A stretch of 64,000 bases of DNA from assembly GCA_965204805.1 (NCBI GenBank), contig OZ242013.1, forward strand, positions 2,605,232 to 2,669,231, given 5' to 3'. The notes beneath the pieces are model-generated. The model was not told the origin of the DNA, ran no database searches, and was given only the letters and a program-made list of their open reading frames with translations. Below, in pieces: positions 27,365 through 47,254 of the stretch. Position 1 is the first letter of the stretch. Every line of letters starts with the position of its first letter. The DNA comes from Dehalococcoidia bacterium (GTDB lineage: Bacteria > Chloroflexota > Dehalococcoidia > Lucifugimonadales > UBA3495). The translations under genes were made by a program, and so were the position numbers.

Positions 27365-27856
27365 TTCCTTTTCCTATTGTGTGATATGTAATTCTCTTAG
27401 ATCAGAACCAAGAGATTGCCGCATTCTAGCCAACGGAAACCGCAAAGTCAAACGGTAATATATCGACTTTTCCAACAAGTACCGACGCTGGATTAGTCGA
27501 GTGATAATTGAGGATGCAGTGAATTTGCGAAATACGTTGCTGCCACCGCTCAGGGTCATGCCGGAAGGGAATGCAGAGACCCTGATGCTGCCTAAATGCG
27601 CCCGCCTAATTGTGTCCTCCGGCAGGCAAGCAGCCCGCCCATTGCCAGCAATGCCGGGCTATCTTCACTTACGTTAAGCCCGGCGGTCTCTCCAACCCAA
27701 AGGGTCGAGAAACGGCAGCAGCGAGGTAGATGTTGGGCGGCAACAGGAGGGGCGCCGGCCATCTGCCGGAAATCTAGGGATGCGAGTACTTTACTTGGCA
27801 GTGATAGAGCAGCTGGTCCACATCGGCCGCGTGTTCCCGGCGCGGTAAGGGGCGAG

Positions 27857-28324
27857 TCAGAGGACGGCGAGCGCGTCTTCGGGCGAGACGACGTTGAGGC
27901 CATAGCGTGCCTGGATGCTGGACGAAGCAAGGTCGTCGCAGAGTGCTTCGTCAGCTGTCACCAGCGTCGCGCCGGATTCCACGGAAAGCCGCACGATGAA
28001 CTTGTCATCCTGGCTGCCCTGTGGAATTTCCGTCTCCTCGGCAAAGGGTGGAGACTCCCTTAGGTACTCCAGCTTGCCGGGCCTGAATATGGCCTGCCCC
28101 AAGGTGCGCAGGATTGCCGAGTCGAATCCGCGATGCTGATGGGCCGGATGGTTCAACTGGCGCTGGATTTTTTCGTAAAGGACGGAGTCGAAGACAATTG
28201 GATGGCAGATATCCAGTATTCCATGCAGTAGATCGAGACAAGTGGGGTCGGGTTCCTCTCGGACATTGGTTTCCAGTTGAGCGAAGATAAAAACGTTTTC
28301 GTCCAGGATGAACCGTTGGGTCAT
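27857..28324 (-). CDS. small PIN-like protein (weak assignment), partner of the upstream ATPase
   Basis: 155 aa. N-terminal acidic motif 'FILDENVFIFA' and C-terminal 'DDKFIVRLSVESGATLVTADEAL' resemble the first and last acidic strands of PIN-fold nucleases. The start overlaps the ATPase stop by 4 nt. Confidence 0.4.
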   Translation of the reverse strand: MTQRFILDENVFIFAQLETNVREEPDPTCLDLLHGILDICHPIVFDSVLYEKIQRQLNHPAHQHRGFDSAILRTLGQAIFRPGKLEYLRESPPFAEETEIPQGSQDDKFIVRLSVESGATLVTADEALCDDLASSSIQARYGLNVVSPEDALAVL

Positions 28325-29301
28325 TGGGACTGCCTCAGTGCCTTGACCAGACGGTCCAATGTTTCCAGGTTGTTAGCATAGAAATCCGTAAGCCCGCCTT
28401 CCACCTGGCCGCTGTCCGTTACTTTGATGTCCGAAGCGGAGCACTCGCCCTTGTCATCCTTTGCGAAGGAGTAAATCGCCAGGTCGTCGGGGGTCAGTGT
28501 ACCCTCAGCTACCAGCAGGAGCAGGCGTTCTACCAGGTGCTCGCTGTGGGTCGTCATGATTATCTGCTTGTCCTCAGCCTTCGCCAACTCCGCCAGCACC
28601 TCCGCCAACTCCGCCTGCGCCTTCGGGTGCAGGTGGATTTCCGGTTCCTCAATCAGGATGGTTGCGCCACTATATGCGGCTATTAGTTGGTAAAGAAGCT
28701 GGATTAGAGCATTTGCTCCAAATCCTTCGGCCGCGATGTTAACCCACCCCTCGGGGATAATTGACCTCGCTACGACCTGCCGAGGCGGAGAAGGCAGCAC
28801 GCGCACGCCGGTTCCCGTTACCCTCTTTAGCATATTTGATAGTTCTTCTTGCGAATCGACGTTGTAAGCAAGATTTGTAGCCAATTGTTCTTCCTGAAAG
28901 TCTAGACCCTGCTGGGTCGGTATATGCTGTGGTATGTCATCACCCAAATCATACACACCCCTAACCAATCCTCTCGCTGCAGGCACATACGCCAGTAGTC
29001 CAAGCGCAGATCTTCGTGCAGCAGACAACTCTTTGGAATCGCTAACATTGACGTCGATTTTGAATTCTGGAGGTTGACGAATGAAATTAGGCGATTCGTT
29101 AATGTAATTACTGATGAGTTTGGGTTCTTTTTCGCGCTCGAACGGGTCGATGCCCACCTCCAAGTGCCTGAGTAGCAACAGCGCCTGCAGCACGCTGGAC
29201 TTCCCTGTGCCGTTAGGGCCGATCAGCACCGTCAGCAGCTTCGGGTTGATGCTGACGTGACGGAAGCACTTGAAGTTCTCCAGCGTGATGTTCGTAATCA
29301 T
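28321..29301 (-). CDS. AAA15/AAA21-type (ABC/OLD-like) ATPase, 326 aa
   Basis: 'ITLENFKCFRHVSI...LTVLIGPNGTGKSSVLQAL' (Walker A), 'ILIEEPEIHLHPKAQ' (Walker B/D-loop), 'IMTTHSEHLVERL' (H-loop), and a DUF3696-like tail 'LAIYSFAKDDKGE...'. Confidence 0.8.
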   Translation of the reverse strand: MITNITLENFKCFRHVSINPKLLTVLIGPNGTGKSSVLQALLLLRHLEVGIDPFEREKEPKLISNYINESPNFIRQPPEFKIDVNVSDSKELSAARRSALGLLAYVPAARGLVRGVYDLGDDIPQHIPTQQGLDFQEEQLATNLAYNVDSQEELSNMLKRVTGTGVRVLPSPPRQVVARSIIPEGWVNIAAEGFGANALIQLLYQLIAAYSGATILIEEPEIHLHPKAQAELAEVLAELAKAEDKQIIMTTHSEHLVERLLLLVAEGTLTPDDLAIYSFAKDDKGECSASDIKVTDSGQVEGGLTDFYANNLETLDRLVKALRQSQ

Positions 29302-29362
29302 GGCGACGCCTTCCCGCCATCAATTGTATCAGGCAGGCCTTCGGCGACGGTGAGTGGGGAGA

Positions 29363-34767: not shown

Positions 34768-35691
34768 CTAATCCAATTGCAGTTCGACGATCGATGGGTC
34801 GATGCGGAAGTGTTGGAGTAGGAGCGTGCTAGATTTGACTATTGCCTCCGAACTCTGTTTTGCCCTGATGTATATGCCCCCAGAAACCTCCTTGGGTTGC
34901 TCGAAGGGCTTCCCGCTCGGACCGAAGGGAGAGGAGTTAATGGAGGCTATTCCCATAATCGGCAGTTTGTCGGCAGTGAGTGTTCCACGCTGAACCAGCC
35001 ACTCGGCGATTTCATGGAATACTTGCCACCATGCTCCGATATCATGCGGGTTGTCGTTGCTAAACTTGATAGCTTTGGGAGGTTTTTGACCTTTAACATT
35101 TGTTATTTGGCTCAACGGAATTCGATTTCCGGGAACCGGGGGCATGGGACTCGGTTCGGGTGGAGCTGGTTCGGGGAGTGGTTCAGGTATAACCGGCTCG
35201 CTGGCCGCCACTGGCTGCCCCGACGACAGGTTGGGCCGCCAGAGCAGCAGCAGTTTCAGAGCCGCCTCGTGAGTTGGAGTATCTGTCAAGGTCACTTGTA
35301 GGATAGTGCGGTCATTGTCTGCAATCTTTGTTAGGTCAACGAAATACCAACGGTTGCCATCGGTCAGACCCGCGTATCTAACTTTCAGACTCCAAGCATA
35401 ATCGAAAATTTGCTTTTCGTGGTTTTCCAGAGATTCACCCAAACGCTTGGCTTCGATGGAAGCAACTAGCTGACCGTTAGACCCTAACAGTCCGTAATCA
35501 GCTCGACCAGAGCCCGCGTTATATTCAGGTCTAACAGACGCTGGGTCTGCCGCGTTCCATACTATTGCTGCCAGCAGCGGGTCAATCAATGCGACACGGG
35601 TGCGGATTTCGTTTTCTCGCAGTACATGACCATGAGTGTCAATGCGCTCTTTGAGTAGCTCGATTACTCCAACCAAATCTTCCAACAGCAT
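34768..35691 (-). CDS. HsdR_N-like (PD-(D/E)xK-type) N-terminal domain protein with an unknown C-terminal domain
   Basis: 'ENEIRTRVALIDPLLAAIVWN...RPEYNAGSGRADYGLL...ASIEAKRLGESL...QIFDYA...GLTDGNRWYF' matches the type I restriction enzyme R N-terminal domain pattern. A Pro-rich linker and ~130 aa of unknown sequence follow. The region is visibly AT-richer than the flanks. Confidence 0.6.
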   Translation of the reverse strand: MLLEDLVGVIELLKERIDTHGHVLRENEIRTRVALIDPLLAAIVWNAADPASVRPEYNAGSGRADYGLLGSNGQLVASIEAKRLGESLENHEKQIFDYAWSLKVRYAGLTDGNRWYFVDLTKIADNDRTILQVTLTDTPTHEAALKLLLLWRPNLSSGQPVAASEPVIPEPLPEPAPPEPSPMPPVPGNRIPLSQITNVKGQKPPKAIKFSNDNPHDIGAWWQVFHEIAEWLVQRGTLTADKLPIMGIASINSSPFGPSGKPFEQPKEVSGGIYIRAKQSSEAIVKSSTLLLQHFRIDPSIVELQLD

Positions 35692-35770
35692 CGCGGCACC
35701 TTCAGGTAGGCGTTTGACTATTGTAGCAAATCGTCCACCGCCAGCCACACACCGAGCAAAGTCTGGCTGG

Positions 35771-43568: not shown

Positions 43569-45467
43569 CTAGCCACGCCGCCCGTGGCGGTAGGGACTGT
43601 CTACCCCCTCAATATGTCCCTGTTCCGATGGGGTTCTGTAGCCCTCGACAAAAGAAGATGCTCTAATAGATTCGACCACTTGCCCCGTTTCTGTCGGTTC
43701 ACGCTGCAAGTCAGGTTCCGTAGCTTCCCGTTGCAAGTCGGTCTGCCATGGCGGGGCATCAACAATCAAGTCCACCTTTGTCCACGGCAACCCCGGCCCA
43801 CTCGAATGCTTCTCGACACCCACCCGTCCGTACCTGTCGATAATCAAACGCAGGCTGGTTGCGGGAAGCCGTGACGAGCTGCCTTCCTGCCCCGATTCCA
43901 AATACCCGTCAATGGTGTAACGTGCTGGACGAGTATTGTCTTGAGGATCCTGAATGAAGACACCATTCGGATAGGTGATTGTTAATTCGTATTCGTGCGG
44001 CTCCGAATTTTCCTGTAGCAGAGGCTCAGACACAAATGGCTCGAACGGATTTGAGTCCCGAATGGGCCGACGCTCCGTATCGCCGTCATCTTGCTTGTGC
44101 TTGTAGTTGAAGTGCCGATACGGCTCGTACTCGACGTTCGCTCCTGTCTGCAAATCTTGCAGCACTATGCGAGCGGGTATTCGGTTAAGGTATAGAGGGG
44201 CATACGGCTCCTCATAGCTGTAGCAAGCCCCCATGCTGATGCTGACCAATTCCAAGTTGGGCGTTCCAATCAAGGTGGGTAACAGCTCGGTAGCCGTTAT
44301 TATCTTTTCCTCTCCAAACCATTCGGCAAGCTCTCTGGGGAAGTAGCCAGCTTTTGTAGGGCCTCCAACCAGGATGATCTTGTCAATGTCGCGGGCGATG
44401 TCTTCCCACATCAGTTGCCAAACAAATCGCATCTCCCCTGTATTCTTGTCTTGCGTGGCAATTTCCCCTATTGGTGGAACATCCTCACTTTCGTCGCGCT
44501 TCCACAGCACCTTGGCGCCGACATATGCGTCCCTAGTAGTTGAGATTGACTTCTGAGAAAAATTTTTCTCGCGCAGTACCATTTCCACTTGGTCCAAAGT
44601 GATGACGCTCCCATCACCCAAGACTTCGGACGGATTTTCTGGAGATAGCCGCTCCTTGGCCCGTCTTAATAAATTTGGCTGTCCTTTATAGGCTACTTTT
44701 TCGGTAAGCCCATCGTCTACGTCTGAACCACCCAGTAGCGGGTGCCCATCAGCCCCGTATACCAGCATTTCGTCTTCTTTGACCTCTACTAAGGCACAGT
44801 CGAACGAACCCCCACCTAGATCGTAAACGAGGTATGATCCATCTGTAAGGTCGCCAAGTCTGCGGGCAAGCGTCAGAAACAGGATGGGTTCTTCAGCTAT
44901 CCAGGCAACATTGGCTTTCCCTGTTACCTTAAGCAGTGATTGAGCCAAACCTTCACGGTAAGACATATCAGCGTGTACCGGGCAACCTGCCCGCCATTCG
45001 AAGTCACCGATAATGCCAGAGCGCCGGAATGCTTCAGCCAGGATGCGGCGAATTAAATCCCAAACCGGAAACTCTTCACCCCATACCCTGAAACACCGTT
45101 CCACAGGGTCCCACTCTTTCTGAGGCCAATCGAGAGGTTTCTCTTTGGCCGCTTCCTGAGACTTTCTGACATTCAAATGCCAGCCTACGTAGGCATCGCT
45201 GGACAAGGCGTTCCGTTTGATGTTGCGAATCACCAGAGTCTTGTTTTCTTCATTTAGGAGATCATCGGCATCTTCTCCAACAATGATGTCGATGTTCCCA
45301 GCTTGGTTTTTCTGAAATGCGACCACCGCAGGCATGGTAGTGGTGCCCTGCTCAGTAGTGGTGCCCTGCTCACCTATCCGTTTGACGTCAGGTGGAAGGG
45401 TTTGGTCAGAATCCCAAGTTGAAATCCGAACATTTGTTGTGCCGAAATCTACACCGACAACCTGCAT
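43569..45467 (-). CDS. non-canonical Hsp70/actin-fold ATPase with an unrelated ~220-aa C-terminal region
   Basis: Phosphate-1 'VGVDFGTTNVRIS', phosphate-2 'YLVYDLGGGSFDCALVEV' and adenosine motif 'KIILVGGPTKAGYFP'. There is no Hsp70 substrate-binding domain. The ATG overlaps the upstream stop (TAATG). Confidence 0.75.
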   Translation of the reverse strand: MQVVGVDFGTTNVRISTWDSDQTLPPDVKRIGEQGTTTEQGTTTMPAVVAFQKNQAGNIDIIVGEDADDLLNEENKTLVIRNIKRNALSSDAYVGWHLNVRKSQEAAKEKPLDWPQKEWDPVERCFRVWGEEFPVWDLIRRILAEAFRRSGIIGDFEWRAGCPVHADMSYREGLAQSLLKVTGKANVAWIAEEPILFLTLARRLGDLTDGSYLVYDLGGGSFDCALVEVKEDEMLVYGADGHPLLGGSDVDDGLTEKVAYKGQPNLLRRAKERLSPENPSEVLGDGSVITLDQVEMVLREKNFSQKSISTTRDAYVGAKVLWKRDESEDVPPIGEIATQDKNTGEMRFVWQLMWEDIARDIDKIILVGGPTKAGYFPRELAEWFGEEKIITATELLPTLIGTPNLELVSISMGACYSYEEPYAPLYLNRIPARIVLQDLQTGANVEYEPYRHFNYKHKQDDGDTERRPIRDSNPFEPFVSEPLLQENSEPHEYELTITYPNGVFIQDPQDNTRPARYTIDGYLESGQEGSSSRLPATSLRLIIDRYGRVGVEKHSSGPGLPWTKVDLIVDAPPWQTDLQREATEPDLQREPTETGQVVESIRASSFVEGYRTPSEQGHIEGVDSPYRHGRRG

Positions 45468-47254
45468 TAGCAAACCTCTGTTTCAGTTGACACGCTGGCC
45501 TTGAGGATTACCCGCTCGCCGACAACTACACCCGGAGCCGCTAGGCGCACCTTCGCTCCAGTGGGAATTGCTTCCGGCGAGTGGTGTAGCTTTGGATCAT
45601 ATTTCACTGTATCGCCAACCATACCTAAAGTCTCAGCTCCACCCTCGCGCAAAGCGTTGGGCAGAGTTGCTATCACGTTGCCAAGCCGATCGTCAGCATT
45701 CTTACCCTGGAGATACGCTCTCTGAAGGGCATCGCCTACTGCCAGCAACATATCCCACCGGATTTCAAGTCTAGATTCCTCACGCCCTGATTTCATTTGG
45801 GCGTCTAAGGATTCAACTTGCTGCCGTAACCGCTCCTGCTCCCACTGCCTCTGTTCCATATCAGCCTCGTGGAGCTGGCGCAAGGCTACCTTTTCTTCCT
45901 CAATACGGACATGAGTCGCGTGATAGAGTGCGTGAGCGGCGGTATCAGATGTAGTGAGAGCGGTATCCAATTCCTGCGACGCTTGGATCGCAAACTCGCC
46001 CGTGCCGTCGGTCAGCAGTAAGGTCGCCAGCACAAGCAGGTTCAGACGGTCCGGGCCTGTAGAGTAGCGGCTGTTAGCAATGTAATTAAGCAATTTGTTC
46101 TTGTCATCCTGCCCTGATGGTGCGGTTAGGGCAATCATCTCTTGTATCCGCTGTGCGCCTTTGCCCTCGGTCACGTCATCTAAGATGCGGTCCAGTTCGT
46201 CGAGGTCTGGATACCGGCGCGGAGAATCATCTATACGGAGAGCAGCTAAAGCAATTTCCCGCGCTAGTTCCGCACGGTTCTGGTGGCCTAGTAGATCAGA
46301 TACGACGCGAAACAGATTGCGGCGATTGCGGCGGGCATTGTTGTCGGATTCCTGAACTGCCGTCCACACGCCAGCGGCGAATCCCTGCTGCCATTCCTCC
46401 GGCTGACCACTCAACGCACCTGCCAGCAACAACCACTCACCGGACTTGGAGTATCCGACAGTTTGGGACAGCGGCATCAAAATCTCGGTAACTTGGGGGG
46501 CGAGATAACTTCTATCGAACAGCCCTACGCACTCATGCCAGCGCAACGACGCCCTCCCTACTGATTCCATCCAACCCGCGGCTGCCGGTTTGGCGGGCCG
46601 TTCAGACGCCAAAAACACTCTGGCACCTTGCAGCATCTTCTCCAACGCATATTGGATGGTCTCGGATGGCCAGTCGGCAAGAGCATTGGCTACGGCCTTT
46701 GGTGGATATCGTCCCGGCGGGGGTTCGTCCTGGTACGAATTGATCCACTCTTTCCATAGCTCAACTGGACTGGGATTTGGTGGAGGCGTCCAGTTCCTAG
46801 GCACAGCGTCAACAGCAGATAGGAGAGTGTATTCATTGCCTCCCTTAGCTTTATCAACCCTGAAGTGCTCCGGCAAGCTGCCCAACGGCTTGGTGCGCTT
46901 GCTCCACCAATTCTTCCACTTGCCGTCCTCGATTACCCAGCCGTCCAGCTTTTCACGGATGTCGGCGGACTTGCCGCTGTTGCCACCGACCGAGAGGGCC
47001 ACCGCCGTCAGTTTCAAGGGCGCTTCCTCGGCCCATGAAGCCAGTTCGCCAGGCCGTTCCCACAACAGGGCTTCAGCGGCGCCGTCAGGCAACGGCTCCA
47101 GAAAGCGTTGCGGCACTGAAACATTGGTAGAGTCCCAAAACTCAACCTGCGCATCCTCGCCGTTGAGTTCCAAGACTCTCCCGACTTCCGGTTTCGGGGC
47201 GCTGGGGCGATTGTTCCGAACAAACATCCCCGCCTGGATTCCTGATTCACTCAC
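45467..47254 (-). CDS. large protein with a coiled coil and a GrpE-like C-terminal domain (putative dedicated nucleotide-exchange factor)
   Basis: The C-terminus reads 'MLLAVGDALQRAY...LGNVIATLPNALREGGAETLGMVGDTVKYDPKLHHSPEAIPTGAKVRLAAPGVVVGERVILKASV'. It parallels GrpE 'LLPVIDSLDRAL...FGVEVI...PLDPNVHQAI...GYTLNGRTIRAAMV'. It is preceded by the long helix 'EEEKVALRQLHEADMEQRQWEQERLRQQVESLD'. The N-terminus is SH3/Tudor-like: 'GMFVRNNR...VGRVLELNGEDAQVEFWD'. Confidence 0.6.
   Translation of the reverse strand: MSESGIQAGMFVRNNRPSAPKPEVGRVLELNGEDAQVEFWDSTNVSVPQRFLEPLPDGAAEALLWERPGELASWAEEAPLKLTAVALSVGGNSGKSADIREKLDGWVIEDGKWKNWWSKRTKPLGSLPEHFRVDKAKGGNEYTLLSAVDAVPRNWTPPPNPSPVELWKEWINSYQDEPPPGRYPPKAVANALADWPSETIQYALEKMLQGARVFLASERPAKPAAAGWMESVGRASLRWHECVGLFDRSYLAPQVTEILMPLSQTVGYSKSGEWLLLAGALSGQPEEWQQGFAAGVWTAVQESDNNARRNRRNLFRVVSDLLGHQNRAELAREIALAALRIDDSPRRYPDLDELDRILDDVTEGKGAQRIQEMIALTAPSGQDDKNKLLNYIANSRYSTGPDRLNLLVLATLLLTDGTGEFAIQASQELDTALTTSDTAAHALYHATHVRIEEEKVALRQLHEADMEQRQWEQERLRQQVESLDAQMKSGREESRLEIRWDMLLAVGDALQRAYLQGKNADDRLGNVIATLPNALREGGAETLGMVGDTVKYDPKLHHSPEAIPTGAKVRLAAPGVVVGERVILKASVSTETEVC

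Follow-up and report, generated by a model that had tools for sequence, protein, structure and literature searches.

An overlapping gene pair for a compact ABC ATPase and a predicted PIN-fold nuclease in Dehalococcoidia, a putative divergent relative of the HEC-03 defence system

The DNA analysed here, called the window in this text, is a stretch of 64,000 nucleotides (nt) of a Dehalococcoidia bacterium (assembly GCA_965204805.1, contig OZ242013.1, positions 2,605,232 to 2,669,231). Between a peptide importer operon and a heterodimeric exporter, both of the ATP-binding cassette (ABC) type, the window carries one copy of a pair of genes that code for an ABC ATPase of 326 amino acids (aa) and a protein of 155 aa. 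A first-pass annotation, made from the sequence, had described this pair as a candidate defence module composed of an ATPase and a PIN-like protein, and could not place the combination in any named system. Both open reading frames (ORFs) are located on the minus strand where the annotation put them. The pair is neither an unprecedented combination nor a new category of system; it is a branch that the PADLOC, Pfam and NCBIfam models do not see. We consider it reasonably probable that it belongs, divergent and compact as it is, to the ABC-ATPase/PIN type of two-gene conflict module, of which HEC-03 (Hma-embedded candidate 03) is the validated example and Menshen NsnB a relative, and that it works in defence through the whole mechanism proposed below.

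The features of the pair are the following, in the order in which they are transcribed:
29309..29315, minus strand: Shine-Dalgarno-like GGGAAGG, 7 nt 5' of the ATPase ATG, read from the sequence
28321..29301, minus strand: gene of the ABC (AAA_15-type) ATPase, ORF of 326 aa
29194..29220, minus strand: Walker A GPNGTGKSS, residues 28-36; G28, P29, N30, G31, G33, K34, S35 and S36 invariant in 64 members, T32 nearly so
29002..29166, minus strand: hypervariable Insert-1, residues 46-100, with low conservation and indels; candidate trigger-sensing surface
28717..28728, minus strand: signature-equivalent EGFG, residues 192-195; E192, G193 and G195 invariant in 64 relatives, F194 nearly so
28639..28662, minus strand: Walker B TILIEEPE, residues 214-221, with the acidic pair E218-E219 kept; invariant in the Dehalococcoidia clade
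28537..28554, minus strand: H-loop TTHSEH, residues 250-255; T250, T251, H252, S253 and E254 invariant, H255 nearly so
28324..28503, minus strand: C-terminal tail, residues 267-326, a beta-hairpin and a long helix, equivalent to DUF3696 by hhalign; predicted docking site of the PIN protein
28321..28324, minus strand: ATGA overlap of the ATPase stop and the PIN start, read from the sequence (...cag tcc caATGAcc caa cgg...)
27857..28324, minus strand: gene of the standalone PIN-fold nuclease, ORF of 155 aa, predicted by structure modelling and Foldseek
28301-28303, 28004-28006 and 27950-27952, minus strand: codons of D8, D107 and D125, which together with T123 are the catalytic residues predicted from conservation

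The 4-nt overlap between both genes, already reported in the first-pass annotation, implies that they are translationally coupled. With respect to base composition, the guanine-plus-cytosine (GC) content of the pair is 0.533 and 0.566, the mean of the window ORFs being 0.613 (standard deviation 0.039). The pair had been called AT-richer than its flanks, which holds for the comparison with the exporter genes (0.656 and 0.628) and with the gene of the solute-binding protein (SBP) of the peptide transporter (0.608), but not with the permeases of this downstream operon (0.541 and 0.555) or with several other ORFs of the window. Between the PIN stop and the beginning of the SBP gene there are 492 bp (27365-27856); a sigma-70-like match in this spacer (27451-27423, minus strand, 10 of 12 positions) is presumably the promoter of the SBP operon.

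The ATPase has Pfam matches to AAA_15 (2.2e-33) and AAA_21 (1.6e-26). Matches are of this type only, in agreement with the previous observation that a Toprim, HNH or fused nuclease domain is lacking, and the motifs listed at that time are present, namely GPNGTGKSS, ILIEEPEIHLHP (residues 215-226) and TTHSEH. The AlphaFold2 model has a predicted local distance difference test score (pLDDT) of 84, lowest in Insert-1, and a predicted template modelling score (pTM) of 0.85; among solved structures, Foldseek matches it best to PtuA (Septu and retron effectors), Rad50 and SMC heads. PADLOC ranks NsnB first for the ATPase (2.2e-46, 157 bits, full length), with AriA, the HEC-03 ATPase model and PDC-M55A next. 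All the ATPases, near and distant, that partner this PIN family give a common ranking: NsnB at 150-180 bits, the HEC-03 ATPase at 100-131 bits, and then AriA and PDC-M55A close together.

In an alignment of 64 relatives of the ATPase, GPNGTGKS, the Q-loop arginine R110, EGFG, LIEEPEIHLHP and TTHSE are invariant or nearly so. The mean majority fraction is 0.94 for residues 1-45, 0.39 for Insert-1, 0.65 for residues 101-190, 0.88 for residues 191-266 and 0.76 for the tail. Insert-1 shows indels of 0 to about 100 aa among relatives, and the members of the family are 320 to 431 aa long.

Pfam finds no DUF3696 in the window ATPase, even when the tail is scanned directly. However, hhalign places tail residues 271-326 opposite positions 401-454 of the HEC-03-family ATPases, and in one of these, that of locus L072, Pfam finds DUF3696 at 400-444. 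The window ATPase is a compact member of the DUF3696-tailed ABC subclade that also holds Menshen NsnB and the HEC-03 ATPase. It has the G[FY]G signature and the TTHSEH-type H-loop in common with NsnB and the HEC-03-family ATPases, and the Walker B acidic pair varies. E-E, the canonical AAA_15 form in which the catalytic glutamate is kept, is found in the Dehalococcoidia clade of the window and in loci L060 and L069; the distant loci L061, L066 and L068 have S/A-E, the HEC-03-type ATPases E-Q, and NsnB E-N or D-S. In a crude neighbour-joining tree the ATPases that partner this PIN family form their own clade in 144 of 200 replicates, and only the separateness of this clade is taken as moderately supported; a sister grouping with HEC-03 appears in 79 of 200 and with NsnB in 7 of 200, distances being saturated and deep nodes weak. 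A tblastn search of plasmids with the window ATPase found nothing at E 1e-8, and at E 1e-3 only DUF3696-type and generic AAA ATPases.

The smaller protein is, as far as modelling can tell, a nuclease of the PIN fold whose active site looks intact. The AlphaFold2 prediction, based on a 45-sequence alignment, shows the canonical PIN alternation of strands and helices (pLDDT 89.9, pTM 0.86). Its best Foldseek match in the PDB is VapC 7vwo_A, from a toxin-antitoxin complex of M. tuberculosis (1.7e-4, probability 1.0), and further matches, all with probability 1.0 and template modelling scores of 0.5-0.6, include HARP 7og5 (a PIN-fold RNase P), PAE2754 1v8o and more VapCs. The guess of a PIN fold, which had been made from the motifs ILDENV (residues 6-11) and ATLVTADEAL (residues 119-128), both present, is thus borne out by the structure prediction and the fold search. 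An identity as RNase P, which the HARP-like fold match might suggest, was rejected: the protein is shorter than the HARPs and is obligatorily paired with an ATPase.

In the close PIN clade D8, E9, N10, D46, E97, D106, D107, T123 and D125 are invariant. Among 113 diverse relatives, down to about 22-35% identity, D8 is kept in 95%, E9 in 89%, D107 in 98% and D125 in 99%, and T123 in 88%, mostly replaced by Ser in the remainder. From a secondary-structure map and from motif alignments to PIN-like PDB chains, D8, at the end of strand 1, would be the first of the canonical PIN acidic positions, D107, at the N-terminus of the long helix, the third, and T123-x-D125, which follows strand 4, the fourth.

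The PIN protein has 214 homologs of about 155 aa, and a profile search found 343 clusters at E <= 1e-3 among 1.84 billion representatives. The best 150 of these 343 clusters are all standalone proteins with no C-terminal extension, full-length members having about 145-186 aa. PADLOC also holds a longer protein, PDC-M11A (PDLC04421), whose positions 2-143 of 486 are weakly matched by the window PIN (E 0.059); weak matches to this N-terminus occur in 11 of 67 distant PIN relatives, the best at 2.7e-5. This hints that PDC-M11A, an untested defence candidate of greater length, starts with a related PIN domain; the supplements of the HEC-03 preprint do not state the nature of PDC-M11.

Linkage between both genes is strict. 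A scan of one genome per GTDB species with the narrow pattern FILDEN[VI]xI gave 59 loci, all of them in metagenome-assembled genomes of Dehalococcoidia/Chloroflexota, a restriction that is partly due to the narrowness of the pattern. The ATPase gene is directly upstream of the PIN gene in the 58 loci that could be assessed, since the remaining one starts 152 nt before the PIN gene, and it ends at the PIN start or a few codons from it. Ten distant PIN relatives were also looked up (wherever BLASTP reported an alignment, they are 17-31% identical to the sequence that heads the query alignment), and an AAA_15 ATPase is directly upstream in all ten, including one on an archaeal-looking contig. These ATPases have 419-497 aa or are C-terminal fragments at a contig end, and five of them match DUF3696 (P0410, P0422, P0413, P0407 and L066, the last with 28.1 bits, above the Pfam cut-off of 22). 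Because there are 214 homologs of the same length and 343 cluster representatives, with the ATPase always preceding, the small ORF is more than a chance reading frame, and the proposed architecture of an ATPase with a separate small PIN nuclease is supported.

The known system that is closest to the pair is HEC-03. The passages of Payne et al. (2024, bioRxiv 10.1101/2024.01.29.577857) devoted to it describe a system of two genes, one for an ABC ATPase and the other for a VapC-like PIN protein, that reduces plaquing by several orders of magnitude, requires both genes and is toxic on induction. The source genes, which overlap, are from Pseudomonas cichorii and code for WP_025259138 (461 aa, named 'DUF3696 domain-containing protein') and WP_025259137 (157 aa). 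In the same passages the ATPase is called HEC-03A and the PIN protein HEC-03B, a naming that clashes with that of PADLOC, where PDLC04148, 'HEC-03B' (458 positions), matches the ATPase.

The window ATPase and the HEC-03 ATPase share 42% identity from Walker B to the H-loop in BLASTP (E 2e-17), and profile-profile comparison (hhalign) aligns the window ATPase with the HEC-03 family from end to end, tail included (99.85%, E 1.5e-30, 333 columns). The PADLOC model of the HEC-03 ATPase gives a partial match that ranks below NsnB (4.6e-32, best stretch residues 190-316). For the PIN protein, an HEC-03-type profile was made from seven sequences of plasmid pairs of Acinetobacter, Aeromonas, Azotobacter, Tistrella and Rhodococcus; hhalign aligns both families over their full length (86-87%, E 4-5e-6, 136-148 columns), with D8, D107 and D125 of the window PIN opposite conserved Asp residues. 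Both window proteins are therefore very probably homologous to the HEC-03 family, as judged by profile similarity, and the statement that the combination had no place among the named systems does not stand. Running PADLOC on the pair, a check suggested at the same time, recognised the ATPase and left the PIN protein unrecognised, so that the two genes do not make up a PADLOC system; its HEC-03 models match neither the window PIN nor 67 of its relatives.

Five of six HEC-03-type plasmid loci (L072-L076, from Aeromonas, Azotobacter, Tistrella and Rhodococcus) have a gene of the RNA ligase family (PF09414, 2.2e-33) directly 3' of the PIN gene, and the sixth (L071, from Acinetobacter) has an HNH endonuclease gene instead. 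The presence of an RNA ligase after the pair suggests a possible logic of RNA damage and repair; this third gene is not mentioned in the preprint passages on HEC-03.

Toxicity on induction, described in those passages, also fits an unlikely reading in which the pair is a selfish toxin-antitoxin or addiction module with no dedicated anti-phage role, the PIN protein being a VapC-like toxin and the ATPase a proteinaceous antitoxin or a regulator that stabilises the locus. A VapC toxin from a toxin-antitoxin complex is the best structural match of the PIN protein, the genes are compact, overlapping and translationally coupled, AAA_21 bears the Pfam label 'putative AbiEii toxin, Type IV TA system', and in Dehalococcoidia the pair is scattered among housekeeping genes and not in defence islands. 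However, the homologous HEC-03 is described as protecting against phages with both genes needed, an ATPase of 326 aa with fully kept catalytic motifs and a hypervariable insert goes far beyond the needs of an antitoxin, and a VapB-like DNA-binding antitoxin is absent at the locus. Moreover, toxin-antitoxin and abortive-infection functions are compatible and not mutually exclusive.

Since NsnB is the best PADLOC match of the ATPase over its full length, Menshen has to be considered too. This system, attributed to Millman et al. (2022), consists of NsnA, a ParB-DUF262 sensor, NsnB and NsnC (PMC12065111). NsnB is an AAA_15 protein with DUF3696, a Walker B of the E-N type, GxG replacing SGG and an arginine in the Q-loop, and NsnC is a catalytically inactive PIN domain that docks on the NsnB tail and is fused to a toxin (PMC12065111). 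As the N-terminal domain of NsnC proteins is PIN-like and binds the tail of NsnB (PMC12065111), the window pair might be seen as a decayed Menshen that has lost the NsnA gene and the NsnC toxin domain. This reading is largely refuted and retains a very slight probability. There is no DUF262 gene in the window or in about 70 related loci, the window PIN keeps the catalytic residues that NsnC PIN domains are without, the best 150 representatives of its family have no C-terminal extension, and no sequence similarity to three real NsnC proteins is detectable (E 0.23-0.30). In addition, the ATPases form a clade of their own that is rarely grouped with NsnB, and their Walker B is E-E and not E-N. 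As the published survey of Menshen used NsnA as its seed (PMC12065111), pairs without NsnA fell outside its scope.

The first-pass annotation had taken the position of the pair between two unrelated operons as a sign of horizontal acquisition. A recent insertion in this genome is unsupported, because the order exporter-exporter-ATPase-PIN is syntenic in 18 of the 59 species loci. Within this synteny group, PIN identity and the identity of the ATPase core correlate with each other (r = 0.77), and neither follows that of the exporter (r = 0.17 and 0.05, respectively, values in which a few comparisons may mix exporter paralogs). PIN identities are bimodal (40-55% and 70-95%), and loci whose exporter is about 80% identical to that of the window have PINs 45-88% identical and ATPases that differ in length. 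These observations fit a pair that co-evolves independently of its neighbours and whose alleles are exchanged, or diversify rapidly, at a fixed locus. With the adjacent exporter as seed, a scan of metagenomes gave nothing but distant exporters (46-58% identity), single-copy and lacking the pair, and is uninformative on the presence or absence of the latter.

Neighbour clustering gives at least four synteny groups with no conserved third gene. By sequence inspection, the neighbours are of gamma-glutamyltranspeptidase-like, glycine-cleavage T/H-like, luciferase-like oxidoreductase, molybdo-hydroxylase-like and major facilitator superfamily types, and no ParB/DUF262 protein is among those inspected. 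Several distant family members also sit among housekeeping genes. Other distant members have different surroundings. For instance, an identical pair of a distant branch occurs in three contexts (L061, L062 and L063; European Nucleotide Archive ERZ25069191 and ERZ25068966), flanked by DDE, rve and IS21 transposases, a type I restriction-modification system and a ThiF/Multi_ubiq/BubE (Bil-like) module, and it looks mobile in its organism. One distant pair is two genes from a DUF499 protein, and another adjoins a phage-type integrase on a contig that carries an archaeal-type Cbf5. In a further locus (L107, 929-3967) the distant pair adjoins an oppositely oriented AAA_15/AAA_21 ATPase of 288 aa, and about 1.4 kb beyond this ATPase, on its strand, lies a NERD-domain protein of 269 aa; together they resemble HEC-02.

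Such a distribution bears on another explanation, according to which the pair would be a domesticated, lineage-specific housekeeping module of Dehalococcoidia, an ATP-regulated PIN ribonuclease for RNA maturation or quality control comparable to the HARP RNase P. The occurrence of all 59 genome loci in Dehalococcoidia/Chloroflexota, the syntenic position beside the exporter in 18 species, the metabolic neighbours, the strongly conserved ATPase core, the presence of HARP among the top fold matches and the failure of the family patterns to find members on viral contigs of IMG/VR are in line with it. However, just 59 species-level genomes of the whole GTDB-based collection carry the pair, and the restriction to Chloroflexota owes something to the search pattern. 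A housekeeping role also agrees poorly with the variety of genomic contexts, with a divergence that is decoupled from the neighbour and bimodal at one locus, with the large indels of Insert-1, and with the transposases, integrase and restriction-modification systems beside distant members. We regard this explanation as distinctly improbable.

The preferred reading remains that of a two-gene ABC-ATPase/PIN conflict module, and a defence role may be assumed for the pair by homology. Its behaviour is defence-like because Insert-1 is hypervariable, divergent alleles occupy one syntenic locus and some distant members stand beside mobile or defence genes. In the mechanism that we propose, the ATPase and the PIN protein would be co-produced through translational coupling and form a complex, in which a dimer or tetramer of the ATPase, as in other ABC ATPases, would hold the PIN protein inactive by means of the DUF3696-like tail. 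Insert-1 would sense a trigger, for which a phage protein or nucleic acid is the most likely candidate, and the resulting change in the cycle of ATP binding and hydrolysis would release or activate the PIN protein. This nuclease would then cleave RNA (tRNA, rRNA or mRNA) and stop translation in the infected cell, following an abortive-infection logic.

Docking through the tail is proposed by analogy, because the literature on Menshen includes AlphaFold 3 models of NsnB4-NsnC2 and discusses the PtuA-PtuB and AriA-AriB complexes (PMC12065111). Insert-1 is a candidate sensor because of its variability and of the argument that Payne et al. put forward for HEC ATPases in the corresponding passages of their preprint. 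RNA would be the substrate in view of what is known of VapC-type PIN families and of the RNA ligase gene in five of the six HEC-03-type plasmid loci. Both the identity of the trigger and the defence phenotype are what we infer for the pair.

Several observations weigh against this interpretation. The link between the window PIN and HEC-03 depends on the seven-sequence profile and its probability of 86-87%; compared with the single HEC-03 PIN sequence, the alignment is in register but non-significant (E 0.006-0.08, probability below 6%). The second canonical acidic position, D46, is kept only in the Dehalococcoidia clade and is D, S, N or T elsewhere among the 113 relatives. The PIN protein is recognised by no PADLOC, Pfam, NCBIfam or PHROG model, so that current tools would call no system here. 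In Dehalococcoidia the pair lies among ordinary genes of metabolism and transport and not in defence islands. Searches of IMG/VR with the family patterns found no viral relatives, and BFVD gave no convincing match. Finally, scans around the pair detected no sigma-70-like promoter in the 245-bp spacer upstream of the ATPase gene, no terminator-like site 3' of the PIN gene and no Rfam match, that is, nothing in the way of promoter or terminator that can be assigned to the pair.

A more speculative reading, which we hold to be doubtful, is that the window family represents the ancestral-type core of the partnership between DUF3696-type ATPases and PIN proteins, with an E-E Walker B, a hydrolysis-competent ATPase and a catalytically intact PIN. 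HEC-03 (E-Q, often with an RNA ligase) and Menshen (E-N, with the PIN degraded to an adaptor for a fused toxin and the DNA sensor NsnA added) would have been elaborated from it, and the locus beside the exporter would be a fixed chromosomal hotspot of Dehalococcoidia exchanging alleles that differ mainly in Insert-1. If so, these alleles would be a natural series for mapping how the specificity of an ABC-ATPase sensor changes.

If the pair is active as a two-gene conflict module, a validated but mechanistically unexplored type of defence, the ABC ATPase plus PIN, extends into Chloroflexota and archaea-like contigs, with hundreds of family clusters that PADLOC v2, Pfam and NCBIfam miss. Useful traits would be the compact ATPase of 326 aa with a minimal Insert-1, the canonical catalytic glutamate and a natural allelic series at a syntenic locus. 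The pair would be a convenient minimal model for the control of a bound nuclease by a DUF3696-tailed ABC ATPase and for the origin of the inactive PIN adaptor of Menshen.

Two other regions of the window deserve mention on account of their composition. Positions 43569-47254 (minus strand) hold two overlapping low-GC ORFs, an unexplained cassette of atypical composition in which neither ORF has a PADLOC match: 43569-45473 (634 aa, GC 0.521) has a partial Hsp70 match only (residues 213-261, 3e-10), and 45467-47254 (595 aa, GC 0.565) is without Pfam match. The ORF at 34768-35748 (minus strand, 326 aa) has a third-position GC content of 0.514, among the lowest in the window, no Pfam domain and, in PADLOC, just a weak similarity to a model of type I restriction enzymes (3.2e-6, residues 35-119).

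Compared with known systems, the pair resembles VapBC in the VapC-type fold and the D...D...T-x-D acidic residues of its PIN protein. However, the partner is an upstream ABC ATPase of 326 aa instead of a VapB-type antitoxin, the overlap of the genes leaves no room for a small ORF between them, and no Pfam PIN family recognises the protein. The resemblance to PARIS (AriA/AriB), Septu (PtuA/PtuB), Gabija (GajA) and OLD lies in an AAA_15/ABC ATPase that governs a nuclease effector: AriA, PtuA, GajA and OLD models match the motifs of the window ATPase, PtuA being its best match among solved structures. These model matches are partial, in two motif-centred stretches; the systems lack the DUF3696-type tail, and their effectors are Toprim or HNH and not PIN, whereas neither Pfam nor PADLOC finds a Toprim or HNH domain in either window protein.

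With Menshen the pair shares the following: NsnB leads the PADLOC matches of the ATPase, both have an AAA_15 core with a DUF3696-type tail, G-x-G for SGG and Arg for the Q-loop Gln, and in both cases the ATPase gene is followed by one whose product has a PIN fold at its N-terminus. The differences are that an ABC exporter gene and no NsnA is upstream in the window, whereas the three Menshen loci that were fetched have DUF262 directly upstream; that the partner is a single-domain PIN of 155 aa with intact acidic residues, and not an inactive PIN with a C-terminal toxin; and that Walker B is E-E in place of E-N.

From HEC-03 the pair is widely divergent in sequence. Identity is about 26% between the ATPases and 13-18% between the PINs, the window ATPase is about 135 aa shorter, nearly all of it within Insert-1, and its Walker B is E-E in place of the E-Q of the HEC-03 family. 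No RNA ligase or HNH gene follows in the window, in contrast to the six HEC-03-like plasmid loci, and the pair is chromosomal in Dehalococcoidia, HEC-03 being carried by plasmids of Proteobacteria or Actinobacteria or placed inside Hma systems. In both, however, the ATPase gene comes first and is followed in the same orientation by a standalone VapC-like PIN of about 155 aa whose start overlaps the ATPase stop, and both ATPases carry a DUF3696-type tail, a G-F-G signature, E-x-PEIHLHP and THSEH.

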